This document shows positions 33,690 through 52,415 of a DNA stretch of 64,000 bases, one piece after another. The position numbers were made by a program, and so were the translations under genes. This DNA is from a phage. The notes below the pieces were generated by a model, which was given only the letters and a program-made list of their open reading frames with translations, did no database searches and was not told the DNA's origin. Location: assembly GCA_025677605.1 (NCBI GenBank), contig GCA_025677605.1_4110.1. One strand, 5' to 3'. Positions within the stretch are counted from its first letter, which is position 1; each line of letters begins with the position of its first letter.

Positions 33690-33730
33690 AGATACACCTA
33701 TGCACCCGGTGGGCTAGTTTTTGTCTATGC
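33690..33730 (-). repeat. conserved noncoding element (CCCACCGGGTGC core), copy 1
   Basis: atgcacccggtgggctag; follows a promoter-in-terminator on the minus strand. Confidence 0.5.
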
Positions 33731-33742
33731 GTATATAATAGC

Positions 33743-33774
33743 AAAGGGACTGACCGGAGTCAATCCCTTTTTTT
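33743..33774 (-). terminator. terminator hairpin with embedded -35/-10
   Basis: aaagggactgaccggagtcaatcccttttttt; stem contains TTGACT and is followed by TATTAT on the minus strand. Confidence 0.45.
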
Positions 33775-33785
33775 ATTCTTTTTTG

Positions 33786-33986
33786 TTAGATGATCTTCCA
33801 ATCTTCCACGATCATTGTAAGATACCGAACCATCGATTCGAGTGATTCGAATTCACGATAATCTGTCGCCCCACCAGCGGTACAAGTACAGCCGATTAAG
33901 CCGGATTGTAGTTCCTGGATCTTTACGTCGATCAGGTTAGCTTTAGCATCTTTCAGTACTTCAACCAGGGCGATAGCGATAGACAT
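33786..33986 (-). CDS. hypothetical small protein
   Basis: 66 aa; ATG at 33984-33986 with RBS ggag. Confidence 0.5.
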   Translation of the reverse strand: MSIAIALVEVLKDAKANLIDVKIQELQSGLIGCTCTAGGATDYREFESLESMVRYLTMIVEDWKII

Positions 33987-34075
33987 AATGTTTTACTCCA
34001 AACTATTGGCGGGAGAACTATTCCCCCGCTCTATGTAAAACATTATACACTATATGATAGTACTGTCAAATAGTT

Positions 34076-34333
34076 TTATGAGATATCCTCGATATAGTCG
34101 GCCCATTTCATTTTTTCAGTACTGTCAAGTGCAATCGGATTGTTAGGATCAAACCATTCACCATTACCGCAATACATCCCCACGGCAACGGTTTTATATC
34201 CATCCTGGGCCGTATTCCATGCAAGGCCACGATAGATACGGCCTTTAACTGGTTGCAGTACTGGTAACGTTTTATGGTCTTCTACGTAGGCCATAGCTTG
34301 AGGATTTACCCGATATTGTGTGAATTGTTCCAT
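34076..34333 (-). CDS. hypothetical protein (paralog of 34416..34682)
   Basis: start moved to MEQFTQ (ATG 34331-34333); shares LPxxxPxxG...Y...W...G-G-W-DP-PI with neighbour. Confidence 0.55.
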   Translation of the reverse strand: MEQFTQYRVNPQAMAYVEDHKTLPVLQPVKGRIYRGLAWNTAQDGYKTVAVGMYCGNGEWFDPNNPIALDSTEKMKWADYIEDIS

Positions 34334-34415
34334 GATGTTTCCCCTTTTAATATTGGGGGAGGATATCTCCCCTATGCAAAACATTATACACTATCAGTTA
34401 GTACTGTCAATACTA

Positions 34416-34682
34416 TCAATTAAATTTAGGATGTATTTCAATGTAGTCACAATAAGGAAAATATTCAATATAACGCGTAGTGATTGGATGTAACGGATCG
34501 GACCATACACCGTCACCCTCATAGCGTGCTATTGGGCCTTTTAAGTACTTTTGTTGTTTCCTTGACCAGTATATGGATTGATAGACTACACCAACGGCAG
34601 GAACAACGAGCGGGAGCATAGAGTGATCTAATACAACGGATTGATAATTTTTATTATAGCGATATGTTGTTTTCTTTTTCAT
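34416..34682 (-). CDS. hypothetical protein (paralog of 34076..34333)
   Basis: 88 aa; GDGVWSDPLHPI matches GNGEWFDPNNPI in neighbour. Confidence 0.55.
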   Translation of the reverse strand: MKKKTTYRYNKNYQSVVLDHSMLPLVVPAVGVVYQSIYWSRKQQKYLKGPIARYEGDGVWSDPLHPITTRYIEYFPYCDYIEIHPKFN

Positions 34683-34734
34683 TGTTAACCTATTATAGAA
34701 ATTATTAAGGGGATATTATCATCCCCTTTTATTG

Positions 34735-34959
34735 TTATACTAGATTATTTAATCCTCTTATGGTTGATGCTTTTTCTTCTTTCTCCCATTGGCGGTAATA
34801 CTTCCATGCTTCGTGATAGGTGGCGATCAGTTTATCTTTCTCTTCCTGGGGGCTATTCAGGAATGTATCCCGATAATCAGTACTATAGATTACATCGAAT
34901 GGTTTTTTCTCAAAGGCCAGGTCTGCAACTACTGATTCAAGTACTTCGTATGTGGTCAT
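34735..34959 (-). CDS. hypothetical small protein
   Basis: 74 aa; RBS aaaggtg before ATG at 34957-34959; PeSL-like hairpin upstream. Confidence 0.5.
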   Translation of the reverse strand: MTTYEVLESVVADLAFEKKPFDVIYSTDYRDTFLNSPQEEKDKLIATYHEAWKYYRQWEKEEKASTIRGLNNLV

Positions 34960-35026
34960 GATATTACACCTTTTAGTGGGGGAGGATATCTCCCCCTATG
35001 CAAAACATTATACTTTGTTTTACTTA

Positions 35027-35290
35027 CTATGCAAGTACTTTTTTCATATAAAGGTTATATTCTACACCGCCGTAACCTTCTACGATGATATGTTTTGCGT
35101 TATCACGTTTGCACATAGTGAAACCGTTGTTGATGTGTTCTGCATTTTCCAGGGATACATCACCGATAGCGGCACATACAGCACTTATAACAGTATTCCG
35201 CAAAGTACTGGTATCGTTAGCGGTCATAGTAGTTTGCAGTACTACGTTGTCGTATACGTGTGCATTGATAGTGATTTCGATAGTGTTCAT
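35027..35290 (-). CDS. hypothetical protein
   Basis: 87 aa; RBS aggag before ATG 35288-35290. Confidence 0.55.
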   Translation of the reverse strand: MNTIEITINAHVYDNVVLQTTMTANDTSTLRNTVISAVCAAIGDVSLENAEHINNGFTMCKRDNAKHIIVEGYGGVEYNLYMKKVLA

Positions 35291-35376
35291 GGTGTATCTC
35301 CTGGACTTGAGGGGAAACCATTTCCCCTCTCGATATAAAACATTATACGTTAATCTAACTACAATGCAAGTACTTT

Positions 35377-35568
35377 TTAAATTTTATTTCCGATATAGTC
35401 CGGCCTATTCTTTTCAGTCATACGCTTTGCTAATGTTTGTATATGGCTTATCGCGTTTAAGGTGTCTTCCTCCAGGGATGAATCAACATAATCAGGATCA
35501 TTCTTAACCTTGCAATGATTATGATAGCGTAGTACTGCAAGTACTTTTTTAACTTCTTCAACTGTCAT
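35377..35568 (-). CDS. hypothetical small protein
   Basis: 63 aa; coupled to 35565..35837. Confidence 0.45.
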   Translation of the reverse strand: MTVEEVKKVLAVLRYHNHCKVKNDPDYVDSSLEEDTLNAISHIQTLAKRMTEKNRPDYIGNKI

Positions 35569-35837
35569 AATAAGTATTCCACTTCGTTAGCTTTCAGGTT
35601 AGTATCAATCATTAGTGGATTTTTGTAGTCCACAAAACGTTTAGTTTTCTCGATAGCGAAGCCCATATAATCCATCTTGCTTACAGTGCATTCATTCTTA
35701 AAAACTTCTTTCGCTGCATTGATGGCTGATTCCATTGATAACCGACCATCTAAGTTAATATTTCCAAATGATCCACCAGCAGAAGTAGGATTACCGTTCA
35801 TATCTTTAATGATCATAGTAGCGGAGTAGCTAGACAT
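35565..35837 (-). CDS. hypothetical protein
   Basis: 90 aa; ATG 35835-35837, RBS aaaggaaa. Confidence 0.55.
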   Translation of the reverse strand: MSSYSATMIIKDMNGNPTSAGGSFGNINLDGRLSMESAINAAKEVFKNECTVSKMDYMGFAIEKTKRFVDYKNPLMIDTNLKANEVEYLL

Positions 35838-35859
35838 AATTTTGTTTCCTTTTATTGGT

Positions 35860-35878
35860 GGGGAGAACTATTCTCCCC
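35860..35878 (-). other. GC-rich 5'-UTR stem-loop (PeSL-like)
   Basis: GGGGAGA-actat-TCTCCCC perfect 7-bp stem. Confidence 0.6.
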
Positions 35879-35890
35879 TTGATGTAAACT

Positions 35891-35918
35891 ATTATACAGT
35901 ACTGATATACTTTGTCAA
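35891..35918 (-). promoter_or_regulatory. sigma70-like early promoter
   Basis: minus strand TTGACA, 16 nt spacer, TATAAT. Confidence 0.6.
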
Positions 35919-35924
35919 GTACTT

Positions 35925-36329
35925 TTATTCGCCCATATAGATTAGATTATCATCGCCCACATAGGGATCGCAAACGTTGATTTCTTCGCAGTACTTAGTG
36001 AATACATCGTCATAGTGACCGATATCACGATCCCAAAAGCCAGTACCGTGACCTTCGCGAGTAAGAAAGAGATCATGACCTGCATGATTATAAGTATAAT
36101 CAGGATTATGGTGTTTTTGTACTGCTTCCATTTCATTACTAAACTTTTCAAGGAAACGAGAACATGCAATCACCGCCGCTTGATGGGCTTGCTCTGATAA
36201 TTCGTAATCTTCCAGGTAGTCGCCGTTCTCATTGTGTACAGTACTGAATTGCATAGCTTCAATGTAACCAGCGACCATAGCAGCATGATTTTTATCGTTG
36301 GCGATGTTCCGGGCTTGATTAGTAGTCAT
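35925..36329 (-). CDS. hypothetical protein
   Basis: 134 aa; ATG 36327-36329; PeSL upstream. Confidence 0.55.
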   Translation of the reverse strand: MTTNQARNIANDKNHAAMVAGYIEAMQFSTVHNENGDYLEDYELSEQAHQAAVIACSRFLEKFSNEMEAVQKHHNPDYTYNHAGHDLFLTREGHGTGFWDRDIGHYDDVFTKYCEEINVCDPYVGDDNLIYMGE

Positions 36330-36410
36330 GATTTTATTCCTTTGTGCTGGGGAGAACTATTCTCCCCTTGATGAAAACTATTATACAGTACTAAGATACT
36401 TTGTCAATAC

Positions 36411-36632
36411 TTAATTACGTTTAAAATGATATGTGCCTTTATCATCCTGTACGCCCCATACTGATTTACCATCAACACCAGTGAAGCCGGATTGTAATTC
36501 AATATGGAAACCATTATTATCAACTACAAAAACTTTTTTATTTTCATCCCGATAACATTGATATTCTGAATCAACATTAAAGGCCGCATCATTCAGAAGA
36601 TTGGAAGCGTAAATGCAAGTCATTGTAGTCAT
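36411..36632 (-). CDS. hypothetical small protein
   Basis: start moved to MTTMTC (ATG 36630-36632) after RBS aagga. Confidence 0.5.
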   Translation of the reverse strand: MTTMTCIYASNLLNDAAFNVDSEYQCYRDENKKVFVVDNNGFHIELQSGFTGVDGKSVWGVQDDKGTYHFKRN

Positions 36633-36684
36633 GATTTTATTCCTTATTACCAGGGAGAACCGTTCCCCCCTCTCGATATAAAAC

Positions 36685-36712
36685 ATTATACTTGATTCTA
36701 AGTACAATGCAA
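36685..36712 (-). promoter_or_regulatory. sigma70-like early promoter
   Basis: minus strand TTGCAT, 16 nt spacer, TATAAT, followed by GC-rich hairpin 36651-36672. Confidence 0.55.
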
Positions 36713-36757
36713 GTACTTTTTAAAAATAGTTTTCAGTACTGACAATACTTATATTAT

Positions 36758-36800
36758 AGATACACTTATGCACCCTATGGGTCAGTGAGTTATCTCTCAA
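36758..36800 (-). repeat. conserved noncoding element, copy 2
   Basis: atgcaccctatgggtcag then terminator-like hairpin 36816-36846. Confidence 0.45.
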
Positions 36801-36854
36801 TGACTATATAATAGCAAAGGGACTGACTGGAGTCAATCCCTTTTTTAATCTTTT

Positions 36855-37439
36855 TTATCGTGTTATAGTTACGGCTTTTACGTCGCGTTGTTTATAGTAC
36901 TGATTCCAGATATTGCGGGTTAAACCGTAATCAAGTACTTTAATCAGGCCATTGCGATCTTGGCCTATGTTCTGCTTTCTGATATCTCTTATCGTTAGTG
37001 TTGATAAGGTATCATCAACGTGTTGTAGTGCATCAGCGAAATGGTGTTGGCGTTCAATAGTGTTACGTTTGACATTGTACTTTAATTCATTGCAAGCGTT
37101 AACGTGCTTTACACTGCCTTTGCTTGCAGTACTCAAACGATCCATAACAATAAACATATTATCAGGATCGCTTAAATGCATATGCACCTTAGCAAAGTAC
37201 TGTTTAAGGTGAGGGCGGTCATAATCTAAAAAATTCCATACCTTACATTCTGTTTCATTTTGTTCTACGCCAGCGTCACAATTAGCGACCTTAATCACTA
37301 ACCGATCATTTAAAGCGAATACGATACGGGATGATCCGGCCCCGATGATCTCCAGACCAGCCAACCGACAAGCTGTAAGGATCTCTTTGTTAGTTTCCAT
37401 TTCTGCCAGTGTACGGATGAATTTAGTATAATTACGCAT
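36855..37439 (-). CDS. minimal protein kinase-like protein (ePK-like fold, tentative)
   Basis: 194 aa; IGAGSSRIVF (Gly loop), VIKV (Lys), DIRKQNIG (catalytic-loop-like), KVLDYG (DFG-like). Confidence 0.45.
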   Translation of the reverse strand: MRNYTKFIRTLAEMETNKEILTACRLAGLEIIGAGSSRIVFALNDRLVIKVANCDAGVEQNETECKVWNFLDYDRPHLKQYFAKVHMHLSDPDNMFIVMDRLSTASKGSVKHVNACNELKYNVKRNTIERQHHFADALQHVDDTLSTLTIRDIRKQNIGQDRNGLIKVLDYGLTRNIWNQYYKQRDVKAVTITR

Positions 37440-37508
37440 TGCATTTACTCTTTAAGATAGCAGGGAGGTATTCCCTGCCTTGATGTGACTATTATATGTT
37501 AGTACTAA

Positions 37509-37736
37509 TTAGATTGCAACAGTTTTATTTGCAATTACAGAATGAATTGCGGTTTTACCTGATTTAGTACTGAATACATTAGCACGACCATTTTCAATAG
37601 TGATGCGGTATTCACCTTTACTATCAATGAGGTTGATAAATTCAGGAGTACTAAACCGAGTTACTTTAAAAGTCAGTACATTGAGTAGGTCCACCAGCGT
37701 AGTAGTTTCTTTGATGCGTTCTAAGATATTAATCAT
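37509..37736 (-). CDS. hypothetical small protein
   Basis: 75 aa; ATG 37734-37736; upstream 60-bp unit repeated before next gene. Confidence 0.5.
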   Translation of the reverse strand: MINILERIKETTTLVDLLNVLTFKVTRFSTPEFINLIDSKGEYRITIENGRANVFSTKSGKTAIHSVIANKTVAI

Positions 37737-37794
37737 TTTGTTTCTCCCCGTGTTGGTATAGATACATAGTACTAAAACAATTGAGTACTGTCAA

Positions 37795-38013
37795 TTAGAT
37801 AATTGCATATTTCTTTAAAGATAATGCGTCTTGTGTTGGCTGATACTCGATACCGTTACCGTTATCTACTTTAACTAATAAACCTTTGTCAATTAGTTTT
37901 TTAATAGTCCGTTGGCCTTGTTGAAAATTGGTAAAATGTGAATCATTACGAAAGGTATAACCGTGCTTAACTGCTTCATCAATAGTTTTCTTTTCGATTT
38001 TAGATAATTTCAT
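37795..38013 (-). CDS. hypothetical small protein
   Basis: start moved to MKLSKIEKK (ATG 38011-38013); same upstream unit as 37509..37736. Confidence 0.5.
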   Translation of the reverse strand: MKLSKIEKKTIDEAVKHGYTFRNDSHFTNFQQGQRTIKKLIDKGLLVKVDNGNGIEYQPTQDALSLKKYAII

Positions 38014-38066
38014 TTTGTTTCTCCCGTGTTGGTATAGATACATAGTACTAAAACAATTGAGTACTG

Positions 38067-38321
38067 TCAACGTGATATTAGTTTTATTTTCTTATTATAT
38101 TGTTGGTGTTCATATAGGTTTATCTTTCCTGTATTCTCGATTACTATTCTGTTGTTGGTGTCCACGTCGATTACACGCAGTTTGCCGTTGCTTAACTTCC
38201 TGGGCAATAGATTACCATTAATAAACTCATTAGCAAGCTGTACGGCCTTTGTGATGATTCTCTGTGGTGCTTTATAGTGTACCCGCAAGATATTATCTTT
38301 TGATAGTTGAACCTTAATCAT
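38067..38321 (-). CDS. hypothetical small protein
   Basis: 84 aa; ATG 38319-38321. Confidence 0.5.
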   Translation of the reverse strand: MIKVQLSKDNILRVHYKAPQRIITKAVQLANEFINGNLLPRKLSNGKLRVIDVDTNNRIVIENTGKINLYEHQQYNKKIKLISR

Positions 38322-38383
38322 TTTAGTTTATCCTATAAAAAAGGCGGGAACTGATCCCGCCGTGTTGTTAGTACTGCAAGTTA

Positions 38384-38779
38384 TTAGATAACCTGGCGGC
38401 GTTTACTGTATACGGTAACACGGTTTCCCTTACGGTCATGACGGATCTCTCGTTTGTTGCGAATCAGTTCACTTGGACGCTTCAGGTTTACCAGGTGATC
38501 CGCGTGAGTCCATGCATTCGAATTTACCTGTACTTTAATATCAGAACCAGCGATAAATTCATCTTGAGCGTTAAGTACTGCTGACAGTTCATCAGCTTTC
38601 TTCTGTTCTGCTGCTGTCAGTACTGGCTCCGGTGAATTCACAATATCAGAGATTTCTTTGAACTGTACGGCCCAGCGTTGACCTTTCGGTGCGGTCGTGC
38701 CCATGTCTTTAAATGCTGCTCCTTCCTCGCGTGCAACAATACGGGCAGCTTCACGGGTAGCGTAGAATTTAGTAATCAT
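38384..38779 (-). CDS. hypothetical protein (paralog of 50198..50464)
   Basis: FATRExAR...FKDMG...RWAV and C-terminal RHDRKGNRVTVYS shared with 50198 gene; start at MITKFY. Confidence 0.55.
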   Translation of the reverse strand: MITKFYATREAARIVAREEGAAFKDMGTTAPKGQRWAVQFKEISDIVNSPEPVLTAAEQKKADELSAVLNAQDEFIAGSDIKVQVNSNAWTHADHLVNLKRPSELIRNKREIRHDRKGNRVTVYSKRRQVI

Positions 38780-38874
38780 GGTATACATCCTATTAGTTAA
38801 GTTAGTACTACAAGTTAGAGTCTATTATAAAGTACTATCTGGGCAATGTCAAATAGTACTTTAAATGGATTCTA

Positions 38875-39198
38875 TTACATATCTTTCTTACGTTTTACAT
38901 CGTTGTAGCGAACTGTGATTTCTTTGTTGATCTCTTTCTCAATGTGGTGAATAACTTTTTCTTTCGGGTTGAAACCTATAACCGTTTCTTTAATGATCTC
39001 CAAGCCCGTGTATTCGCCTTGTGTACCGTAACCGTAAGTAAAGGTTTCATGTCCCAGGTCTTCCCAGCGGTCGCCAATCAACGCAGACACGTAGCAAGAG
39101 TGGTAAGTATTGCCGTGTGAATCAGTCCACCGATTAACTTTAATGTCAAAGGATGTTACAATTTTCAGTTCTACTTTCTGGGTAAGGATCATAGCCAT
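38875..39198 (-). CDS. hypothetical protein (paralog of 44672..45016)
   Basis: 107 aa; GNTY...YGYG...DVKRKKD shared. Confidence 0.55.
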   Translation of the reverse strand: MAMILTQKVELKIVTSFDIKVNRWTDSHGNTYHSCYVSALIGDRWEDLGHETFTYGYGTQGEYTGLEIIKETVIGFNPKEKVIHHIEKEINKEITVRYNDVKRKKDM

Positions 39199-39286
39199 TT
39201 TTATTTCTCTCTTTTAGTTAGGAGGGGAACCGTTTCCCCTCACTCGATGTAAACTATTATACAGTACTAAGATACTTTGTCAATAC

Positions 39287-39469
39287 TTATTTTTTGGAAA
39301 GTTTACGCATTAATTCTACGCTTTCTTGTGAACGTTTTGCTACCTGGCAATCTGCATGGGCAGTAAACATTTTTGTATAGTCTGACGCTTTGCCACCGAA
39401 CCGAGCGGCACGTTCACGGGCACTTGGAACTAATACAATTTCTTTCTTACAGATAGTGCACTTAGCCAT
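39287..39469 (-). CDS. small Cys-rich protein (possible zinc ribbon)
   Basis: 60 aa; MAKCTICKK...HADCQ; paralog of 45392..45535. Confidence 0.5.
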   Translation of the reverse strand: MAKCTICKKEIVLVPSARERAARFGGKASDYTKMFTAHADCQVAKRSQESVELMRKLSKK

Positions 39470-39556
39470 TTTTATTTCTCTCTTTTAGTTAGGAGGGGAA
39501 CCATTCCCCTCACTTGATGTAAACTATTATACAGTACTAAGATACTTTGTCAATAC

Positions 39557-39832
39557 TTAAGTATTGTAAATGTCGTGAATAGTGATAAAGTTTTTACGAC
39601 CGTAAACCTGTAAATCAGTATCAATGTAGTGCTTATCAAGTACATCCTCGACGCTTAACGCGGTGTCGTGAATATCTTCATAGAATTGAGGATCTACAAT
39701 CTTGCTTAAGTCATCCGGCGTTAACTTATCGTTAAGCCATTGAACCGCCTGGATATCTGCTTCACGTTTCCAGTCTTGCAGGTTAGTAGTCAGTACTTGC
39801 TCGATTTCGTTAGCTGTCAGTAGAATCCGCAT
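39557..39832 (-). CDS. hypothetical protein
   Basis: 91 aa; ATG 39830-39832. Confidence 0.5.
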   Translation of the reverse strand: MRILLTANEIEQVLTTNLQDWKREADIQAVQWLNDKLTPDDLSKIVDPQFYEDIHDTALSVEDVLDKHYIDTDLQVYGRKNFITIHDIYNT

Positions 39833-39864
39833 TTTATGTTTCCTTATCAGTAGTTGATGTAAGT

Positions 39865-39892
39865 ATTATACTCGTTTACTTTCTATTGTCAA
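39865..39892 (-). promoter_or_regulatory. sigma70-like promoter (proximal, P2)
   Basis: minus strand TTGACA, 16 nt spacer, TATAAT. Confidence 0.5.
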
Positions 39893-39900
39893 ACTATTTT

Positions 39901-39972
39901 ATCAGGGGAGTTTTTCGTATGTCTTACTCCTGGACTACTTAACGGGGTTACTTGTTTCATTCCCCGTCCTGA
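39901..39972 (-). other. conserved three-stem structured RNA element (leader or small RNA), copy A
   Basis: outer stem ATCAGG/CCTGAT enclosing hairpins GGAGT/ACTCC and ACGGGG/CCCCGT; near-identical copy at 49947-50021. Confidence 0.5.
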
Positions 39973-39980
39973 TGTAAAAC

Positions 39981-40008
39981 ATTATACTTGATTCTAAGTA
40001 CAATGCAA
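39981..40008 (-). promoter_or_regulatory. sigma70-like promoter (distal, P1) reading into structured element
   Basis: minus strand TTGCAT, 16 nt spacer, TATAAT. Confidence 0.5.
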
Positions 40009-40054
40009 GTACTTTTTTAAAAATAGTTTTCAGTACTAGCCACCAGCAAACAAT

Positions 40055-40095
40055 AGATACATTTATGCACCCGGTGGGCTAGTTTTTGTCTATGC
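40055..40095 (-). repeat. conserved noncoding element, copy 3
   Basis: atgcacccggtgggctag; hairpin 40107-40136. Confidence 0.45.
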
Positions 40096-40147
40096 ATATA
40101 TAATAGCAAAGGGACTGACCGGAGTCAATCCCTTTTTTCAATTTATT

Positions 40148-40297: not shown

Positions 40298-40467
40298 GCT
40301 ACGGCCCCCTTGTCGGCTTTACCTTTACGCCAGGACGTTACTAATTGTTCGCGTTGCCATAAGTCGAGTGATACAAAAAGTTTTGCGGTATCACCCTTCG
40401 GATATTCGCCAGTAGTACCCATCCGATAAAACAAATCTTTCAGTACTGACAATTCTACATGGATCAT
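40294..40467 (-). CDS. hypothetical small protein (below ORF-track cutoff)
   Basis: 57 aa MIHVELSVLKDLFYR...; RBS aggag 9 nt upstream. Confidence 0.4.
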   Translation of the reverse strand: MIHVELSVLKDLFYRMGTTGEYPKGDTAKLFVSLDLWQREQLVTSWRKGKADKGAVA

Positions 40468-40468
40468 T

Positions 40469-41323: not shown

Positions 41324-41329
41324 ATAATC

Positions 41330-42766: not shown

Positions 42767-42799
42767 TGTAGTACTCCTTATTAGATTGATATATTTTAT

Positions 42800-42840
42800 T
42801 TACACTTCCGCACCCTGTGGGCTAGTGAGCTATCTCTCAA
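42800..42840 (-). repeat. conserved noncoding element, copy 4
   Basis: ccgcaccctgtgggctag; hairpin 42859-42886. Confidence 0.45.
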
Positions 42841-43108
42841 TGAATATATAATAGCAAAATGGCTGACCGAAGTCAACCACTTTTTTCATTTATTTTTAGC
42901 TTTTAGAATCGCCGCTTTTCGCGTCATGCCTTGCTTGATGTACTCCTTTACTTTCGCTTTACGTGCTTTCGCTTTATCTGCTTTCGTTTTAGGAGTACTG
43001 TAAATTAAACCGTTAGGATTCATTTAAATCACCATAAAGAATAGATAGGTTACTAACAATGCCGCGATCAATGCACCGATCACCGCCGAACTGTAATAAG
43101 CCAATGAT

Positions 43109-45850: not shown

Positions 45851-45920
45851 TGTTTTGATTCCTATTCAGTAGTTGATGTATGTATTATCGCAGTACTTAA
45901 AACTATTGTCAAACTATTTT

Positions 45921-46073
45921 TTAAAGTTTATCAATGATTGATGCCGTTTCATTGATAGTCTTGCCGTGTTTTGCACACGCGATAACTGCTTTAAATTCCT
46001 TTGATGACCAATCTTTTTTACTGCATACTGACATTACTTGTAAAGTGAAACAATCCAGTTCATAAGTATTCAT
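45921..46073 (-). CDS. hypothetical small protein (below ORF-track cutoff)
   Basis: 50 aa MNTYELDCFTLQVMSVCSKK... Confidence 0.3.
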   Translation of the reverse strand: MNTYELDCFTLQVMSVCSKKDWSSKEFKAVIACAKHGKTINETASIIDKL

Positions 46074-46253
46074 CTTTATATCCTCAGTTAGTTAAGGTGT
46101 CTCGCCTTGATGAAATTAATTATACGCTAATCTCTTAATCGTGCAAGTACTTTTTATTAGTTTTTGCAAAATACTTTAAACGCCCGCAATCGCATTCTAA
46201 CGACCTTAACGCCACCAGCTAGGGCGATGCATCAGATAATCAGTTTAATGCGT

Positions 46254-46267
46254 TAGAATCGATTCTA
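46254..46267. promoter_or_regulatory. perfect 14-bp palindrome TAGAATCGATTCTA (candidate operator)
   Basis: seen directly; half-site ATCGCATTCTAACG recurs at about 41236 and 51443. Confidence 0.4.
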
Positions 46268-46299
46268 GGCGGTGCTGGGGGCATGGTAAACGATAAACA

Positions 46300-46327
46300 C
46301 AAAAAAGCCCACTGTTTAAGGTGGGCT
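46300..46327 (-). terminator. rho-independent terminator
   Basis: AGCCCAC-tgtttaag-GTGGGCT with T-run on minus strand, just downstream of the 46349 stop. Confidence 0.55.
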
Positions 46328-46348
46328 AGTGATTCAGTACTTTAATTG

Positions 46349-46831
46349 TTATGCTTCAACTTTGCGATGAGCTTCGATCCATTCCTCGCGAGTCAATCCG
46401 CTTTCTTTGATAGCATCCAGTACTACGGCAATGCAGTTACCGCGTACTGGTACAGTGTATTCCTCGCCATTATCCAGAACTACCGGCACGCGTTCCTGAA
46501 TCCATTTTTTAGCTTTTACTTCTGGCTTGTCTTCCCCGTATTTCGCTGCCAGGGCTTTACGTGCCATTTCGGTTACTACTTCCAGATCAAGCCCAGCGAC
46601 GGCGGCGTTAATATCTTCAATCGTTTTCTGCAATTCAGCTTCGCGTGCTGCCTTCTCAGCTTCAAGTGCCGCCGCTTTATTAGCTTGTAGTTCTTTCGCT
46701 TCGCTGTACGCAATGTTAAAATTGTTGCGTACTGCTTTCATGGTATCGCTATCCAGTTCAGCCAGGATCTCAGCCGCTACGTTAGTTTCATTTGCTACCA
46801 GTGCTTTGATGAATGATTTTACATTAGCCAT
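46349..46831 (-). CDS. hypothetical Ala/Glu-rich protein (locally higher GC)
   Basis: start at MANVKSF (ATG 46829-46831) behind RBS gaggaa; coiled-coil-like AAALEAEKAAREAELQK. Confidence 0.55.
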   Translation of the reverse strand: MANVKSFIKALVANETNVAAEILAELDSDTMKAVRNNFNIAYSEAKELQANKAAALEAEKAAREAELQKTIEDINAAVAGLDLEVVTEMARKALAAKYGEDKPEVKAKKWIQERVPVVLDNGEEYTVPVRGNCIAVVLDAIKESGLTREEWIEAHRKVEA

Positions 46832-46884
46832 TATATAATTCCTCAATTAAAGTTTAGTTTACGTTTATTAGTGTATCAAAGTTT

Positions 46885-46948
46885 TCTTGACGTGTCCAGT
46901 TTTTCGTTCGACTTACTGGCGGTCTACTTAGTGTTCCCCGTCTTGATG
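46885..46948 (-). other. structured RNA element, diverged copy C
   Basis: CCAGT/ACTGG hairpin and CCCCGTCTTGATG tail; promoter TTGACA, 16 nt spacer, TAGAAT at 46955-46982. Confidence 0.35.
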
Positions 46949-47030
46949 TAATACATTCTACGCTTTTCTTCGGTAATGTCAACTACTTTTTTAAAACTAT
47001 TTTCAAAGTATCTCAGTACTACACCACTAC

Positions 47031-47058
47031 AAAAAAAGCCCACTGTTTAAGGTGGGCT
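47031..47058 (-). terminator. rho-independent terminator
   Basis: same AGCCCAC...GTGGGCT hairpin as 46300-46327. Confidence 0.55.
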
Positions 47059-47075
47059 ATTGATTCAGTACTAGA

Positions 47076-47375
47076 TTATAAACAGTTAATTACTCCTGTG
47101 TGCGTTACTTTCTCAGTATCCATAACCGTGACCGAACCGCGTTTTTTCTTCGCATCATAATAAATTGTTGTGCTACCTTTCGCATCTTCTTCATGGAACG
47201 GGCCATTTTTAAATGCTTCTGGCTGTAATTCCAGATCCTTTAAAACAATCTCGCCAGTACTTTCATCGGTCATTGCTACGGTGCACTGAATGAATTTATC
47301 ACCAGGTACATCTAACGACGCATTAACAGCGAAAGAGGAAACAGATAAAGCCAGGGCGATGATTGCTACTTTCAT
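47076..47375 (-). CDS. putative secreted/periplasmic small protein
   Basis: 99 aa; signal peptide MKVAIIALALSVSSFAVNAS. Confidence 0.55.
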   Translation of the reverse strand: MKVAIIALALSVSSFAVNASLDVPGDKFIQCTVAMTDESTGEIVLKDLELQPEAFKNGPFHEEDAKGSTTIYYDAKKKRGSVTVMDTEKVTHTGVINCL

Positions 47376-47460
47376 TTGATTATCCTTAGTTACCAGGGGA
47401 ACCGTTCCCCCCCTTGCTATGTAAAATATTATACAGTACTAAAAACTAATTGCAAGTACT

Positions 47461-47697
47461 TTATGATTTTTTATAAAACATTTCGGCAGTGATATTTTTA
47501 CCCGTTGGTTGTACTTTATCCAGGATTTTTTGATGCCCGGACCGTCCAAATGAATATGATCCGTAAACCGTAAACCAGTAGTTACCCTCAGTGTTTACAT
47601 GTACAGCACAATAGGGAACGCCCCGCGATTCATCACTAGTAAAGTGTGCTACCGTTCCCGTTACATTCGAAGACGTTGATTTGATTTGTTCGACCAT
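47461..47697 (-). CDS. hypothetical small protein
   Basis: 78 aa; ATG 47695-47697. Confidence 0.5.
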   Translation of the reverse strand: MVEQIKSTSSNVTGTVAHFTSDESRGVPYCAVHVNTEGNYWFTVYGSYSFGRSGHQKILDKVQPTGKNITAEMFYKKS

Positions 47698-47805
47698 TTT
47701 CTTATTCCTTAGTTACCAGGGGAACCGCTCCCCCTATGCAAAACATTATACGCGTTTAAAAACTATTAGCAAGTATTTTAATAAAAAGTATTTGAAAAAT
47801 AGTTC

Positions 47806-47834
47806 TTGACAACTGCATCCAATACTGGCATAAT
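47806..47834 (+). promoter_or_regulatory. plus-strand sigma70-like promoter
   Basis: TTGACA, 17 nt spacer, CATAAT on plus strand in an otherwise minus-strand region. Confidence 0.45.
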
Positions 47835-47840
47835 TACTAC

Positions 47841-47947
47841 ATAAAGACAAAACAGTCTCTAACCCACCGGGTGCATAGATCCGTCTATTAAATGATTCAG
47901 TACTGAAAAAAGAAAGGGGATCAATTGATCCCCTCGTTGTTATTTTG
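47841..47947 (+). ncRNA. candidate small RNA containing the conserved CCCACCGGGTGC element
   Basis: promoter upstream; palindromic hairpin GGGGATCAATTGATCCCC at 47916-47933 followed by T-rich tract; no ORF. Confidence 0.25.
47906..47933 (-). terminator. rho-independent terminator (bidirectional)
   Basis: GGGGATCAATTGATCCCC with T-run on minus strand after the 47940 stop. Confidence 0.5.
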
Positions 47948-48161
47948 TAAGGTATAAACAGAAGTCACCTTTATTTGCTACGCCGCCAGTGTAACGCGAT
48001 GAATAGTTAGAAACGTCCTGGACTTCTGCTATTACCAGTGTATCATCATTCAATTCGTCGCAGAAGCAAACGGCTGGATCTTTTACGCCGATATTGTCGG
48101 CATGTTCCCGCATAGATTTAACCAGTGCTTCAAGTTGGGAAAGGGTAGTAATGTTAGCCAT
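47940..48161 (-). CDS. hypothetical small protein
   Basis: start moved to MANITTLSQ (ATG 48159-48161). Confidence 0.5.
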   Translation of the reverse strand: MANITTLSQLEALVKSMREHADNIGVKDPAVCFCDELNDDTLVIAEVQDVSNYSSRYTGGVANKGDFCLYLTK

Positions 48162-48246
48162 TTTATTTTCCTCATTACCAGGGAGAACCATTTCTCCCCT
48201 CTATGTAAACCATTATACAGTACTAAAAACTAATTGCAAGTACTTT

Positions 48247-48450
48247 TTAATTTAATTGCTTAAAAACATACTCAAAGACACGACGCACATCATTGATCAT
48301 CGCCTGGCGGTTAGCAGGTAACGCATCAGGATCGCCACTATCCCAGGCATTGATAAAACTCCCCAAATCATGATAGATTTTATTCTGTAAGCCGATTAAC
48401 TGCAATTCTTTTTCTTCAAGCTCTTTGATACGTTCAATTAAATCACTCAT
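48247..48450 (-). CDS. hypothetical small protein
   Basis: start moved to MSDLIERIKELEE with RBS aagga. Confidence 0.45.
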   Translation of the reverse strand: MSDLIERIKELEEKELQLIGLQNKIYHDLGSFINAWDSGDPDALPANRQAMINDVRRVFEYVFKQLN

Positions 48451-48467
48451 TATATAATCCTTAGTAC

Positions 48468-48752
48468 TTAACTGTAAGATCCGCAACGGTCGCAGTAGTG
48501 CCCGTCCTCGTCATCGTCAACGAATTGACCGACGAAATGATCTACTTTCGCTTTCAGGTTATTATAATCGTTTTCTACTTCCTTTAAACGCTTCTGGTAG
48601 TATTCCAGTGCTTTAAGATATGCCGCATCAGCAGTTTTCTCCTGCATAGCTAAATTCATGCCACGCGTTTCATCGTACAGCCAAAAACCATCGGTGCACT
48701 GGCTAATAGATAATGACTTGCTTAGTACTGTATAGTTAATTACTTTGCTCAT
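48468..48752 (-). CDS. hypothetical protein
   Basis: 94 aa; C-terminal HYCDRCGSYS. Confidence 0.5.
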   Translation of the reverse strand: MSKVINYTVLSKSLSISQCTDGFWLYDETRGMNLAMQEKTADAAYLKALEYYQKRLKEVENDYNNLKAKVDHFVGQFVDDDEDGHYCDRCGSYS

Positions 48753-48837
48753 TAGATAATCCTCAGTAAAGGCGGGAACTATTCCCCGCCTCGATATAAA
48801 GTATTATACGTTAATCTAACTACAATGCAAGTACTTT

Positions 48838-49110
48838 TTAGTTTTTTAATTCTTTTACTGCATCAGGTGCGACAGAACCATCAATGTATTGAACATCGTT
48901 TTCAACTTCACGGGCGGCATCATTCAGCAGATCAAAATTAAATTCCATTTCTTCCAGATCATCAAAATCAGGCTCATAACCATTAATTGTTGAATAAGTC
49001 CAAGTACCTTTTTCATAAGTCACGACACTTACATCAGGGAAGAAATCTTGCACATGATCCATTGCATCCCGAACCAGTTGATGTGCAGTTGTGATATTTA
49101 AAGTTTTCAT
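48838..49110 (-). CDS. hypothetical protein
   Basis: 90 aa; ATG 49108-49110. Confidence 0.5.
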   Translation of the reverse strand: MKTLNITTAHQLVRDAMDHVQDFFPDVSVVTYEKGTWTYSTINGYEPDFDDLEEMEFNFDLLNDAAREVENDVQYIDGSVAPDAVKELKN

Positions 49111-49203
49111 TTTGTTACCCTTTTAGTGTGAGCGGGGAACCACTCCCCGCCTCGATATAAAGTATTATACGCTTTTAAACTTAGTATGCAAGTACTTTTT
49201 AAA

Positions 49204-49878
49204 TTAATATTCGATTGATTCTACTACGCCATCAATAACATTGAATTGATATTCGTTACCCTCAATCAGTGCCGTAATGTTTTCAGTAGTGAATTGATCC
49301 TCATATGCATTCTCTAAATCACGGTACAACTTGCGGGATAATTCACGAATAGTTTCAGTGAGTAGTTCCTCAAGCTCATTAACTAACGCTTCTTGTTTTG
49401 CGGTTAAATCAGTGTAAGCCGATTCAATGTACCCGCTTACAGTGTTTTCATGCGAGTAGTTGGAGTGAGAACGCTTTACACTCATTGCCAAATCATCTTC
49501 ATTCAGCAGGTGACGGATTGAGCGATACTTAGTTAATGCTCTAACCTTGCGTAAAAACTTCTCAGCGTCAACGTGGTCAGTACTAATTGATGCACCGTCA
49601 CCCTGCGACCAAAAACCACTGAATTGTATTTCAGCGTCATTAATGCCATATTCCGGTAGTACTGTTTCTTTATAGTATTCAATTTCACTTTCAGAAAAAT
49701 AATCGTCGTTTAAGTTTTTTTCACGTTCCCGAACCAGTTCGATAGCTGACGTTTGTTGTTCTGCGTTCAATTCAGAAAAATCCATAACGAAAGTAGTATT
49801 AGTGACAGTTTTCGCTTTGCAACCCTCATTCAATTCAGAAAAATCCATAACGAAAGTAGTAGTAGTGATAGTTTTCAT
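49204..49878 (-). CDS. hypothetical protein with N-terminal tandem duplication
   Basis: 224 aa; 21-aa unit TTFVMDFSELN repeated twice from a 63-bp direct DNA repeat near 49743-49870. Confidence 0.55.
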   Translation of the reverse strand: MKTITTTTFVMDFSELNEGCKAKTVTNTTFVMDFSELNAEQQTSAIELVREREKNLNDDYFSESEIEYYKETVLPEYGINDAEIQFSGFWSQGDGASISTDHVDAEKFLRKVRALTKYRSIRHLLNEDDLAMSVKRSHSNYSHENTVSGYIESAYTDLTAKQEALVNELEELLTETIRELSRKLYRDLENAYEDQFTTENITALIEGNEYQFNVIDGVVESIEY

Positions 49879-49946
49879 TTTGTAACTCTCATTCAGTAGT
49901 TGATGTAAGTATTATACGCTTTTAAAAACAATTGTCAAACTATTTT

Positions 49947-50021
49947 ATCAGGGGAGTTTTTCGTGTGCCTTACTCCTGGGCTACTTAACGGGGAGTTACT
50001 TATTTCGTTCCCCGTCCTGAT
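49947..50021 (-). other. conserved three-stem structured RNA element, copy B
   Basis: near-identical to 39901-39972; flanked by P1 (TTGCAA, 16 nt spacer, TATAAT) and P2 (TTGACA, 16 nt spacer, TATAAT). Confidence 0.5.
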
Positions 50022-50109
50022 GTAAAACATTATACGCCTTTAAACATAGTTTGCAAGTACTTTTTATCAAATAGTTTTCAGTACTGGCATTGTACTTAAT
50101 CACTTTACT

Positions 50110-50145
50110 ATAGATACACTTCCGCACCCTATGGGCTATCGCCTT
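50110..50145 (-). repeat. conserved noncoding element, copy 5
   Basis: ccgcaccctatgggctat. Confidence 0.45.
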
Positions 50146-50197
50146 GTGTCCGGCTTGTAAGTATTATCTCACTAAGCCGGATAATGGTCAAGTACTT

Positions 50198-50464
50198 TTA
50201 TTCAAGTACTGCAATCTTTTTAGTACTGTACACGGTAACACGGTTTCCCTTGCGGTCGTGCTTTATTTCTACCACTCGACGCGATACACTATCAGGACTT
50301 TTTAACGCCGCTAACCAGTACTGAATTGATCGGGCTGTACTTTGCTTTACTACGGCCCAACGTTTACCCCTGGCTGATTGTACGCCCATATCTTTAAACG
50401 TTGCACCGTCAACCTTTGCCGCTTGCCGAGCTTGTTCACGCGTCGCAAAGTATATAATATTCAT
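50198..50464 (-). CDS. hypothetical protein (paralog of 38384..38779)
   Basis: start moved to MNIIYFATRE; 3' end about 33 nt near-identical to 38407-38440. Confidence 0.55.
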   Translation of the reverse strand: MNIIYFATREQARQAAKVDGATFKDMGVQSARGKRWAVVKQSTARSIQYWLAALKSPDSVSRRVVEIKHDRKGNRVTVYSTKKIAVLE

Positions 50465-50546
50465 GCTGTTACCCCTATCGTTGTTGTATAAAAGAAATCT
50501 ATTATAAAGTACTATCACCGTGCAATAGTACTTTTAATCTATTCTC

Positions 50547-50786
50547 TTACATGCCAACCATTGCAGCACGGATCGCAGTAGTGCTATACTTGAATCCGTC
50601 CGGTGTTTTATCTTGTCCAGTCTGTTCTAAAAATAGCATCATATGACGGGCCGCATCATTTCGATTAGTGTTAGCGGCAATAAAGTCCAGGGCCAACCGG
50701 TATAATGATTCATCGTTATTAATCCAAAGGCTTACATTCCATTGAGTTTTGTTTTTGTGACCTAAGAACATTTTTGATTTAGCCAT
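50547..50786 (-). CDS. hypothetical small protein
   Basis: 79 aa; ATG 50784-50786. Confidence 0.5.
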   Translation of the reverse strand: MAKSKMFLGHKNKTQWNVSLWINNDESLYRLALDFIAANTNRNDAARHMMLFLEQTGQDKTPDGFKYSTTAIRAAMVGM

Positions 50787-50879
50787 TTTTAAATCCTCTT
50801 AATTATAGTGGGGAACTATTCCCCACCGGATAGAAAGTATTATACATTAATCTAATTACTTTGCAAGTACTTTTTTAAC

Positions 50880-51242
50880 TTATTCGTAAATCTTGCCACT
50901 GTCAGCCCATACCAGGAAACGAGGCATATTATCCCATGCATCTTGTTTTAAGTTTAAGCCGTGCAATACTTCGGTACTTTCCATCCCAGGCACTGGTTTA
51001 CTATACACCGCAAATAGTTCGCCCATGTACTGATAAGCCATCGTTAAATCACTGGCAATCATCTTGTGGATCATCGCATCAAGCATCACAGTAGCGGCGT
51101 ATTGTTCACGCTTAAGCGGCAACATTGCAATCAATTCCCGATAAGCTGATATATGAATCTTTACAGTCTCAGCCGGAAGATCTTTCATCTCTTCGCGAAA
51201 GTTAACCAGGTTAGCAATGATTTTAGTGATTTGAGTCGCCAT
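50880..51242 (-). CDS. hypothetical protein
   Basis: 120 aa; ATG 51240-51242. Confidence 0.5.
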   Translation of the reverse strand: MATQITKIIANLVNFREEMKDLPAETVKIHISAYRELIAMLPLKREQYAATVMLDAMIHKMIASDLTMAYQYMGELFAVYSKPVPGMESTEVLHGLNLKQDAWDNMPRFLVWADSGKIYE

Positions 51243-51534
51243 CGTTTTAATTCCTATTAAAGTGAGTTAGGAGCGTTTCCCCCGTCTCGATGTAAAACAT
51301 TATACGCCCTTAAACATAGTATGCAAGTACTTTCTACAAATACTTTTAAAATAGTTTTCTTTCTATATAGGAGTACTATCATTCAGTACTGAATCAATCC
51401 AGTGGTACAATTATTCAGTACTATACCCTTAAAACGGCCTCAATCGCGTTCTAACGCATTAATACACCTAAGCTATACATTTGCACCACTCCCAACAATC
51501 CAGGGCTTTACGGGCCGTTTAAACACCAGTACTG

Positions 51535-52044
51535 TTAAGAGTACTTTTTAAAATATTTTATTATTGTTTCCTTTGTAACTCCAAATTTTCTACCCAATGC
51601 AGTAGCACCATAAACGCGATCCCCTGGCTTATAATGTGTTATAATGTATTGTGTATCGTCGGCGGTCAAACGTGCCTTATCGTTATCATATCCCGTTAAA
51701 CGTGGTTTAACTAATCCAGAATCAAACGCATGTTTAACATTTTCGCTATTGGTTGCCCATTCCAACGCGGTGTAATGATTGTTCGCCTTTCCCTTTAAAT
51801 GATTAACTTGAACTATCTTATAGTGAGTTTTTGCAGCCCATGCGATTTGTTCCGCAGTAGGCGGTGATAGATAGTTATTAGCAACCAATCTATGAACAAA
51901 ATGATCCCCATCGTTTAACGATACTCTTTGATAACCTTTTTCGGTTATACGTGGTTTAAGATTGGTTGTAGTGCCAATCTTTCTAACATCCCCATACTCG
52001 CTAACTTCATATAAATTATTTTCTTTTAGTACCTTCCATTGCAT
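51535..52044 (-). CDS. HNH homing endonuclease
   Basis: 169 aa; LYEVSEYGDVRK...KGYQRVSL...HFVHRLVANNY typical of phage HNH endonucleases. Confidence 0.75.
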   Translation of the reverse strand: MQWKVLKENNLYEVSEYGDVRKIGTTTNLKPRITEKGYQRVSLNDGDHFVHRLVANNYLSPPTAEQIAWAAKTHYKIVQVNHLKGKANNHYTALEWATNSENVKHAFDSGLVKPRLTGYDNDKARLTADDTQYIITHYKPGDRVYGATALGRKFGVTKETIIKYFKKYS

Positions 52045-52118
52045 ACACGATCCCCTGATGTAACATTTATTTGATACTATTATATCATAAAAATATGTTC
52101 CATCTCATAAAATAGTAC

Positions 52119-52146
52119 TTGCATTCTGTACGGCATAGCGTATAAT
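52119..52146 (+). promoter_or_regulatory. plus-strand sigma70-like promoter
   Basis: TTGCAT, 16 nt spacer, TATAAT, then TACTACATAAG...CTAACCCACAGGGTGC element. Confidence 0.45.
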
Positions 52147-52200
52147 TACTACATAAGCCGGAAACAAGGCACTAACCCACAGGGTGCCGAGATCCGCCCA
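52147..52200 (+). repeat. conserved noncoding element, copy 7 (plus orientation)
   Basis: tactacataagccggaaacaaggcactaacccacagggtgccgagatccgcc. Confidence 0.45.
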
Positions 52201-52334
52201 AAATTCATATAATTTAAAAAGGATACACTCCCGCACCCTAGCAGGTCAAAGCACTTTCTCAGTACTGAATCATAGTACCATAGTACGCCCCAGGATGGCA
52301 AGCAAATTAATTAAAACTTTTTACACTTAGGCTA

Positions 52335-52363
52335 TTGCTTTTATAATTCAGTACTGCTATAAT
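52335..52363 (+). promoter_or_regulatory. plus-strand sigma70-like promoter
   Basis: TTGCTT, 17 nt spacer, TATAAT. Confidence 0.4.
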
Positions 52364-52374
52364 TATTTCATCAA

Positions 52375-52415
52375 GTCGAGAAAGACTCTAGCCCACCGGG
52401 TGCATAGTTACGCCC
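52375..52415 (+). repeat. conserved noncoding element, copy 8 (plus orientation)
   Basis: ctctagcccaccgggtgcatagttacgcc. Confidence 0.45.

Follow-up and report, generated by a model that had tools for sequence, protein, structure and literature searches.

In phage HK022, the putL site begins at position +3 after an early promoter, and put RNA, of about 73 nt, has long bulged stems, of which stem I carries a triple helix (PMC9378689). T4-type promoter-early stem-loops (PeSLs) combine a terminator stem-loop with a near-consensus early sigma70 promoter and are repeated in ORFan-rich early regions (PMC2839356, PMC4122927). In this work, we analyzed a stretch of 64,000 nt of phage DNA (contig GCA_025677605.1_4110.1, at its full length called the window in the following), in which CCCACCGGGTGC forms the invariant core of a folded RNA of about 50 nt. 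According to the best reading, this repeated element belongs to a new family of promoter-coupled structured phage RNA, to which no function is assigned. Among known systems, it appears to be most like the promoter-proximal phage RNAs (put, nut) or abundant small RNAs, while its terminator-promoter part seems PeSL-like.

The core CCCAYMGGGTGC occurs eight times in the window, six times with at most one mismatch (0.01 expected by chance) and twice with two mismatches. Five of these cores lie on the minus strand (33702, 36770, 40067, 42810, and 50124) and three on the plus strand (47863, 52176, and 52392). Thereby the original prediction of at least eight copies in both orientations was borne out, with correct positions on the minus strand and positions off by 3–10 nt on the plus strand. 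A covariance model was built from 12 copies registered by hand. Scanning the whole 64 kb with filters off returned exactly these eight copies with 39–62 bits and one further weak match at 52213–52269 on the minus strand, otherwise only noise. This match is a true but diverged ninth copy, having its own promoter, an intact first helix and a tail fitting the family. True copies reach bit scores of 19–68 compared to window noise of at most 12.4; the E-values are rough because the model was briefly calibrated.

Altogether, 96 distinct copies were found in phages of Escherichia, Klebsiella, Cronobacter, Pectobacterium, Erwinia, and Yersinia. Upstream of every copy, −35 and −10 boxes of the sigma70 type are present in a fixed register. 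The upstream profile of 70 distinct copies consists of an A-rich UP-like tract, TTGAC, and TTTG-TATTAT as extended −10, followed 6–7 nt past the −10 by a conserved CA (A in 67 of 70 copies), which is taken as the transcription start. The transcribed element begins about 7 nt after the −10, and the 5′ overhang before the first helix, P1, is 2–4 nt in all copies. P1 consists of 3–5 bp with at least 15 unrelated stem sequences (e.g., UGAG/CUCA, AGAC/GUCU, GCC/GGC, AGUC/GACU, UGGC/GCCG, AGCA/UGCU, and UCCUG/CAGGA) and carries a purine-rich loop of 6–8 nt ending with AA. It is followed by a YUAR linker, the invariant CCC-A-Y-M-GGG-U-G-C, a 7-nt stretch with a conserved A and U, and Y-R-Y-Y-Y-A. Conservation stops at about +50, and the usual continuation is A-rich. 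Two further helices can be drawn in this segment: a mini-hairpin RCCC-AYM-GGGU of 4 bp with a loop of 3 or 4 nt (P2), and a possible alternative helix of GGGUG with the YRYYY tail 8 nt downstream (P3). The distance from the −10 to the core is 21–29 nt and varies with the length of P1; hence, the sigma70-like promoter upstream of each copy had been foreseen correctly, whereas its position a few nucleotides from the core had not. The element lacks the features of an intrinsic terminator (GC-rich hairpin and U tract), as a U-run is found within 8 nt after P3 in about 10 of the 96 copies; in three copies the run follows P3 directly and is terminator-like. A −10-like TANNNT is located at a fixed position just past P3 in 30 of 70 copies. 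The nine copies in the window are composed as follows:

Copy 1, 33682–33770, minus strand: terminator-like hairpin 33770–33743 containing the −35; promoter TTGACT-17-TATTAT 33763–33735; element 33725–33682 with short P1 UAG/CUA and core 33713–33702; standard early promoter downstream at 33622–33594, minus strand.
Copy 2, 36750–36843, minus strand: hairpin 36843–36816; promoter 36836–36808; element 36804–36750 with P1 UGAG/CUCA and core CCCAUAGGGUGC; directly 3′ of a kinase-like open reading frame (ORF), with a standard early promoter next.
Copy 3, 40047–40135, minus strand: hairpin 40135–40108; promoter 40128–40100; element 40096–40047; 93% identical to copy 1 over 96 nt, with different flanking genes.
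Copy 4, 42790–42883, minus strand: hairpin 42883–42856; promoter 42876–42848; element 42844–42790; direct 5′-untranslated region of the ORF 42766–42584 (Shine-Dalgarno (SD) sequence AAGGAG).
Copy 5, 50104–50191, minus strand: promoter TTGACC-17-GATAAT 50191–50163 without terminator hairpin; element 50159–50104 with P1 GCC/GGC and loop GGACACAA.
Copy 6, 47806–47934, plus strand, antisense to the early genes: promoter TTGACA-17-CATAAT 47806–47834; element 47840–47894; bidirectional terminator 47915–47934; promoter and terminator predict a small RNA of about 100 nt.
Copy 7, 52119–52207, plus strand: promoter TTGCAT-16-TATAAT 52119–52146; element 52152–52207 with P1 GCC/GGC and loop GGAAACAA; directed towards the presumed genome end.
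Copy 8, 52335–52423, plus strand: promoter TTGCTT-17-TATAAT 52335–52363; predicted +1 at about 52370; P1 52374–52387 (AGUC/GACU); core 52392–52403; P3 of GGGUG 52398–52402 with CGCCC 52411–52415.
Copy 9 (diverged), 52213–52301, minus strand: promoter TTGCCA-18-TACTAT 52301–52272; element 52269–52213 with P1 AGUAC/GUGCU, loop UGAGAAA, and core CCUGCUAGGGUGC with compensated CCU/AGG; P3 hairpin 52239–52220 followed by UUUUU; tail-to-tail with copy 7, with 5 nt between the models.

The evidence for an RNA structure comes from the changes between copies. The alignments used, A3 with the 70 distinct copies and A4, had been fitted to a model in which P1 and P2 are specified and P3 is not. In A3, each of the four P1 pairs shows double-sided, pairing-preserving changes in 24–32 sequences, 92% of the cells pair, and none of 500 shuffles reaches the observed covariation. 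The signal collapses when the partner is slid by 1–3 columns. A covariance analysis had been proposed with the original prediction, and these compensatory changes in P1 are its outcome. P2 (RCCC/GGGU) pairs in 98.9% of the cells and shows a C-G to U-A double change, in which A as the first G of GGG accompanies U as the third C of CCC; this is found in Pectobacterium phage CBB and Yersinia phage fHe-Yen9-04, which have different P1 stems, and in copy 9 of the window. Both P1 and P2 were recovered by RNAalifold on the model-fitted A3. An earlier run of MAFFT and RNAalifold on eight raw copies misaligned P1 and showed P2 alone, and was replaced by the hand-registered seed with covariance model. 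Copies within one genome and between related genomes are not independent, but P1 occurs with at least 15 unrelated stems and is spread across genera, which lessens this concern.

The P3 tail varies by transitions only (UAUCU, UAUCC, CGCCC, CACCC, CGUCU, CAUUU, etc.), and its variants keep G-C/G-U or U-A/U-G pairs with GGGUG, so that 95% of the cells are pairable. In one copy with GGA instead of GGG, P2 is broken and an A-U pair is gained in P3. Since P2 and P3 share the GGG, they are mutually exclusive alternatives, which implies that the element may be a conformational switch or a fold stabilized by a partner. Single-sequence folding energies are only slightly better than those of shuffles (z of about −1 to −1.9), and for this reason the fold probably needs a partner. 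G-U pairs correspond to A-C mismatches on the other strand, which makes the structure specific to the sense RNA, and the variable distance between −10 and core is evidence against a spacing constraint on the DNA. Judged by these patterns of change, the element is shown to be a transcribed, structured RNA module and not a DNA site. The small RNA family, offered as one option by the original prediction, thereby gained support from the compensatory covariation and the strand-specific G-U pairs. Three additional interactions were considered and rejected: an extension of P3 by the pairs 55–62 and 56–61 is pairable in only 62–73% and without covariation; for a pseudoknot between P1 loop and tail (AGAUA with UAUCU), no correlation was seen by inspection, most tails being UAUCU irrespective of the loop; and P3 as a strand of a triple helix was excluded by reasoning on geometry and base identity.

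By its sequence, the source phage of the window is an Asteriusvirus (121Q/TH47-like) jumbo coliphage. In megablast, the region from 33 to 41 kb is 88–94% identical to the Escherichia jumbo phages A4, 121Q, G17, and relatives, all of about 350 kb and of the genus Asteriusvirus. Direct terminal repeats (DTRs) of this genus are 21.0–21.5 kb long (fEgEco12 paper, PMC13070987), and the DTR start of phage vB_Ec-M-J (record positions 84–700) aligns with 53460–52820 of the window. Together, both would place the DTR by homology at about 32.0–53.5 kb of the window and the physical genome end at about 53.54 kb, with the minus strand as the main direction of DTR transcription, which would thus lead from the genome end inward. 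The copies of the element sit inside this terminal repeat. TH47, the closest relative, has a complete genome of 352 kb, in which all 10 copies are located between 88.9 and 104.9 kb, i.e., within 16 kb, and also inside the direct terminal repeat of about 21 kb.

Outside the window, BLAST searches with two variants of the element matched 44 and 66 phage records, all Rak2-like and nearly all of 310–390 kb, with hosts from Escherichia, Salmonella, Klebsiella, Cronobacter, Pectobacterium, Erwinia, Serratia, and Yersinia. With the covariance model, GAP32, Hallingskeid, Muenster, and Yen9-04 were each seen to carry 9–13 copies in their early region or DTR, and further copies were identified in CBB, RaK2, 121Q, and uncultivated relatives. 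The element is confined to the early-gene terminal repeat of Rak2-like enterobacterial phages, with 8–13 copies per repeat. When 2.9 million IMG/VR contigs were searched with a specific pattern containing a spacer of 7 N, all 14 matches were located in genomes of Rak2-like size or their fragments. A scan of IMG/VR with an exact 15-mer gave 80 loci, of which at least 77 are apparently chance matches to unrelated contigs; relatives were confirmed for L035 and L060 only, both of them CBB, and three other matches, L039, L056, and L078, are on large contigs. The core stays invariant between genera whose flanking DNA is too different for alignment, and no other non-coding feature of the terminal repeat is as conserved as the element. 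The objection that the copies might be parts of one recent duplication does not hold, as they differ from each other in their flanks and in P1, and conservation of the element extends over different phage genera.

Known RNA families were searched as well. The whole window gave no match to Rfam 15 at gathering thresholds, permissive Rfam scans around copies 6–8 returned chance-level matches to unrelated families with none over the core, and ARAGORN detected no tRNA- or tmRNA-like genes in the window. In the distant relative PA5oct, for which RNA-seq data exist, no copy was present in the first 30 kb of the terminal repeat, including two abundant non-coding RNAs. Mimicry of a host sequence was rejected, since BLAST matched the element to none of 5,426 complete E. 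coli genomes and none of 72,556 plasmids. Mimicry of a CRISPR repeat was tentatively rejected as well, because the arms of the core do not form an inverted repeat of the kind found in I-E, I-F, and IV-A repeats. The element is unmentioned in the literature searched and apparently represents a previously undescribed RNA family.

The copies are found in several genomic arrangements. Counted over five genomes, 34 of 49 copies are sense to early genes and 15 are antisense. Sense copies are often so near to the terminator of the preceding gene that the −35 falls within the hairpin (AAAGGGATTGACTCCGGTCAGTCCCTTT-GCTATTAT). In the window this arrangement is seen in four copies (33702, 36770, 40067, and 42810); an embedding of the promoter in a terminator hairpin had been predicted for all five minus-strand copies and fails for the one at 50124. 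The exact string ATAGACAAAAACTAG given for the element applies to the copies at 33702 and 40067 only, this part of the other copies being a hairpin of different sequence. Within 20–75 nt downstream of sense copies, either one of about 30 standard early promoters or, for the copy at 42810, directly an SD sequence and ORF is located; four window copies have a second promoter between element and gene. Antisense copies are followed after 15–20 nt by a bidirectional terminator, from which an RNA of about 100 nt is predicted. Such units were found in the window (47806–47934) and, as equivalents, in Klebsiella, Erwinia, Yersinia, and Pectobacterium phages. Also, tail-to-tail pairs with exactly 5 nt between two 55-nt models occur in GAP32 (three pairs), TH47, Yen9-04 (one pair), and the window (52152–52207 on the plus and 52213–52269 on the minus strand). 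Nearly every early gene has its own promoter, and the early region is dense in terminators. Copy number and positions vary among close relatives, with 10 copies in TH47 and 9 in the window.

With these features, the element shares with HK022 put a structured RNA right after an early sigma70 promoter, two stem-loops, more than one occurrence per genome, and a −10-like hexamer within or just after the RNA. As in put, the RNA is immediately downstream of the promoter, with the element 2–4 nt from the predicted +1 in all copies; in contrast to the about 70 nt and two long bulged stem-loops of put, it comprises about 50 nt and helices of 4–5 bp. Unlike put, it has an invariant 12-mer, an alternative pairing, and 8–13 copies per repeat, about a third of the copies are antisense or in tail-to-tail pairs, and no sequence relation was seen. 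Lambda-type nut sites likewise have a small hairpin with a purine-rich loop beside a conserved linear motif in an early leader. However, the P1 stem of the element varies between copies of one genome, its loops of 6–8 nt are not a GNRA-like pentaloop, and no N-like protein was found in the window. No match to boxA (CGCTCTTA / TGCTCTTTAACAA) with at most one mismatch adjoins any copy, and the RfaH ops motif GGCGGTAGnnTG has no exact match in the window, its lone match with one mismatch being within an ORF at 40306. The PeSL coupling of stem-loop and early sigma70 promoter in an ORFan-rich region is present in 4 of 9 copies. The available account of PeSLs defines them by stem-loop and promoter only, whereas the −35 of the element lies inside the hairpin; its strongest conservation, in contrast to PeSLs, is found in the structured transcribed segment, also where the hairpin is lacking and in antisense copies. 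These antisense copies, consisting of promoter, about 100 nt, and terminator, resemble phage and bacterial small RNAs with Rho-independent terminator. The high dosage of one short motif shown many times is similar to sponge RNAs such as CsrB, but in contrast to CsrB-type sponges the repeats are on many separate transcripts, a GGA motif is not universal, and most copies are without own terminator.

Regarding function, we tentatively prefer, while giving it somewhat less than an even chance, that the activity resides in the short RNA or 5′ leader itself, which would bind a conserved protein. The RNA is read as the product because terminators and facing copies keep the antisense RNAs short and conservation ends at +50. 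The consensus host sigma70 promoters, with UP-like A tract and TGn-extended −10, would fire at the conserved CA, and the element-bearing DNA is presumably the earliest expressed. Many strong promoters firing on DNA entry would flood the cell with one invariant RNA epitope, whose partner could be a host factor common to Enterobacterales or a conserved early protein of the phage. The epitope would then be a decoy or sponge, or provide a 5′ handle for the mRNAs starting with it, and P1 would mainly be a generic protective 5′-terminal hairpin, as the hairpin on standard early transcripts may be. More doubtful is a reading with a new class of 50-nt regulatory RNAs, switchable between P2 and P3, for an RNA-based host takeover. 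With two terminal repeats, each genome would have up to about 26 promoters for their mass production within the first minutes after infection. In this case the RNA would load onto host RNA polymerase unlike put, or decoy a conserved host factor or defence.

Several points weigh against an RNA product of this kind. Most sense copies are without a terminator and would read into the downstream promoter or gene; therefore, a purely trans-acting small RNA is not the whole story. Transcripts and their 3′ ends are deduced from consensus promoters and terminators. The variation in P3 is compatible with pairing but, given an invariant 5′ strand, amounts to no covariation, and the shuffle control is uninformative; the model-fitted alignments favour the modelled helices P1 and P2. 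A Pfam search of 40 ORFs in or next to the early region gave nothing RNA-related and identified no partner, and no N-like arginine-rich peptide or N-terminus stood out among the window proteins. A cognate factor was rejected among these 40 ORFs, for which Pfam gave only a kinase-like protein, a ParE-like toxin, NUMOD4, and domains to which no function is assigned.

As the main rival, a cis-acting nascent RNA would modify its own RNA polymerase by processive antitermination or anti-pausing, so that transcripts read through the terminators of the early region. It would do so either by RNA alone as in put or in a nut-like manner, with P1 as a boxB-like hairpin recruiting a phage protein. The position at the extreme 5′ end of early sigma70 transcripts as in HK022 putL, the two stem-loops, the purine-rich P1 loop, which is reminiscent of boxB, and the density of terminators all fit this explanation. 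Also, four sense copies restart transcription right after a terminator, and a sigma-dependent pause, as has been suggested for putL, could arise at the TANNNT that follows P3 in 30 of 70 copies. We still regard it as unlikely: an antiterminator would be pointless or harmful in antisense copies directly before terminators or head-on to another copy, read-through is unneeded where nearly every early gene has its own promoter, the helices are short compared to the long bulged stems of the 73-nt put RNA, neither boxA nor ops is near any copy, and the search of the window proteins yielded none resembling N, Q, or NusG. The element could instead be a module for stability or processing at the 5′ end, in which P1 blocks the entry of RppH and RNase E and the core is the site for a nuclease or regulator timing decay or translation of some early mRNAs. 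E. coli mRNAs of the ompA type are stabilized by 5′-terminal stem-loops with few unpaired nucleotides, and here the 5′ overhang is just 2–4 nt in all copies, the about 30 standard early promoters of the region likewise have a 5′ hairpin near +1, and copy 4 is a direct 5′-untranslated region. This explanation is distinctly unlikely in our view, as it accounts neither for the invariant 12-mer and tail conserved across genera nor for tail-to-tail pairs and stand-alone antisense copies heading no mRNA; in addition, the second promoter before the gene in four window copies would leave most of the mRNA of that gene without the element.

Very unlikely is a PeSL-like mobile cassette, i.e., a unit of terminator and early promoter serving as recombination substrate for shuffling ORFans, with a functionless transcribed part. 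The A3G3...C3T3-type stem-loop with early sigma70 promoter does fit the description of T4-type PeSLs (PMC4122927; PMC2839356), the region is full of small ORFan genes, and the differences in copy number and positions between TH47 (10) and the window (9) would be expected. However, recombination driven by homology predicts conserved sequence and not the replacement of stems with pairing kept, the greatest conservation is found downstream of the promoter and is invariant across genera with unalignable flanks, copies 5–8 have no terminator hairpin, and the G-U pairs make the structure strand-specific. A recombination site, another option in the original prediction, is at most a side effect because selection for homology would not preserve a freely varying hairpin sequence. 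A site in duplex DNA, be it bound as an operator by a repressor or activator or used by terminase or in replication, has the lowest probability of all and is highly improbable. The invariant 12-mer would suit it, as would the location of copies 7–9 near an iteron-like array and the presumed end of the terminal repeat. Furthermore, in Klebsiella phage Muenster a core-like 12-mer, CCCACTGGGTGC, is found without P1 and pointing outward at 31975–31986 of L083 (record positions 18–29), 17 nt from the genome end predicted by PhageTerm. On the other hand, the core is not an inverted repeat, neither covariation in P1 nor G-U pairs would make sense in duplex DNA, the promoter is found at varying distances, and no core is present within 700 nt of the genome start in G17, fENko-Kae01, vB_Ec-M-J, and CBB. 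A terminase or genome-end site was rejected as well, since the terminal 12-mer of Muenster is not repeated at the ends of these four genomes. The proposed phage-specific promoter or activator site is not supported: the copies lie downstream of ordinary consensus sigma70 promoters at a distance from the −10 that changes with hairpin length, and the core is not palindromic.

Further features of the region were noted. Between 33100 and 53200 on the minus strand of the window, the about 30 near-consensus early promoters (AAAAAGTACTTGCA/TTGACA-16/17-TATAAT) are followed, a few nucleotides past the start, by a GC-rich leader hairpin of the GGGGAGAA-nnnn-TTCTCCCC type and then by an SD sequence and a small ORF. 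These hairpins form a second, more numerous class of 5′ leaders in the region. A second non-coding leader repeat of about 90 nt is present on the minus strand at 39868–39972, 49914–50020, and, partially, 46845–46946. It is located between a standard early promoter and another promoter, has no ORF, and comprises a conserved CUAAGUAG...AGUAAG...ACGAAAAACU block and two hairpins, the second with two compensatory pairs. Of its three copies, two are just downstream of element copies 3 and 5. The stems of the minus-strand terminators 47058–47037, 46327–46306, and 41323–41298 begin with AGCCCAC (AGCCCACC...GTGGGCT), a 7-mer with which the core of several element copies begins as well (tAGCCCACcggg); either chance or a common origin may account for this. 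The palindrome AGTACT occurs 269 times in the whole window, compared to about 21 expected from base composition (87, 128, and 54 in three segments), in promoter spacers (CAGTACTGnTATAAT), beside −35 boxes, after elements, and within coding regions.

Near the presumed genome end, an iteron-like tandem 8-mer CCATCTAG with about 11 units and nested periods of 16, 32, and 40 nt is located at 52588–52756, in a non-coding stretch of 1.1 kb about 0.8 kb from this end, and may serve in packaging or replication. At 53339–53393, near the presumed DTR end, it is followed by a 23-nt tandem repeat, CAAAGGGTATTCGGAATTTTCCA, with 2.4 copies. At 57647–63564 on the plus strand, six paralogous units with a spacing of about 0.9–1.3 kb have a common promoter, ribosome binding site, and first codons (TATAGTATAATGAATAAAGGAGGAA-ATGTTACCTTTTGTTAGAATG). 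Among the early ORFs, all on the minus strand, Pfam matched 36858–37439 weakly to protein kinases, 38070–38321 to a ParE-like toxin domain (E 6e-11), 51538–52044 to NUMOD4, a homing-endonuclease module, and 50550–50786 to DUF7249. Two further minus-strand ORFs, 38384–38788 and 50198–50518, encode paralogous small basic proteins with common FYATRE.AR...GA.FKDMG....G.RWAV and C-terminal HDRKGNRVTVYS; the latter is encoded directly upstream of element copy 5.

Rak2-like jumbo phages are under development for therapy against E. coli, Klebsiella, and Salmonella, while their early genes and the control of these are mostly uncharacterized; no transcriptome study of this group was found in the literature searched. 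An RNA of 50 nt with clear mutational predictions for P1, P2, and P3 provides a small and concrete handle on host takeover. If the element does no more than stabilize transcripts or belong to a cassette, it would still offer a defined promoter-plus-leader part and could mark the early region and terminal repeat in this clade. Should it bind RNA polymerase or a host factor, it would be a second example after put of a short phage RNA reprogramming its host, and if host takeover does proceed in this way, the mechanism would be based on RNA and not on early proteins.

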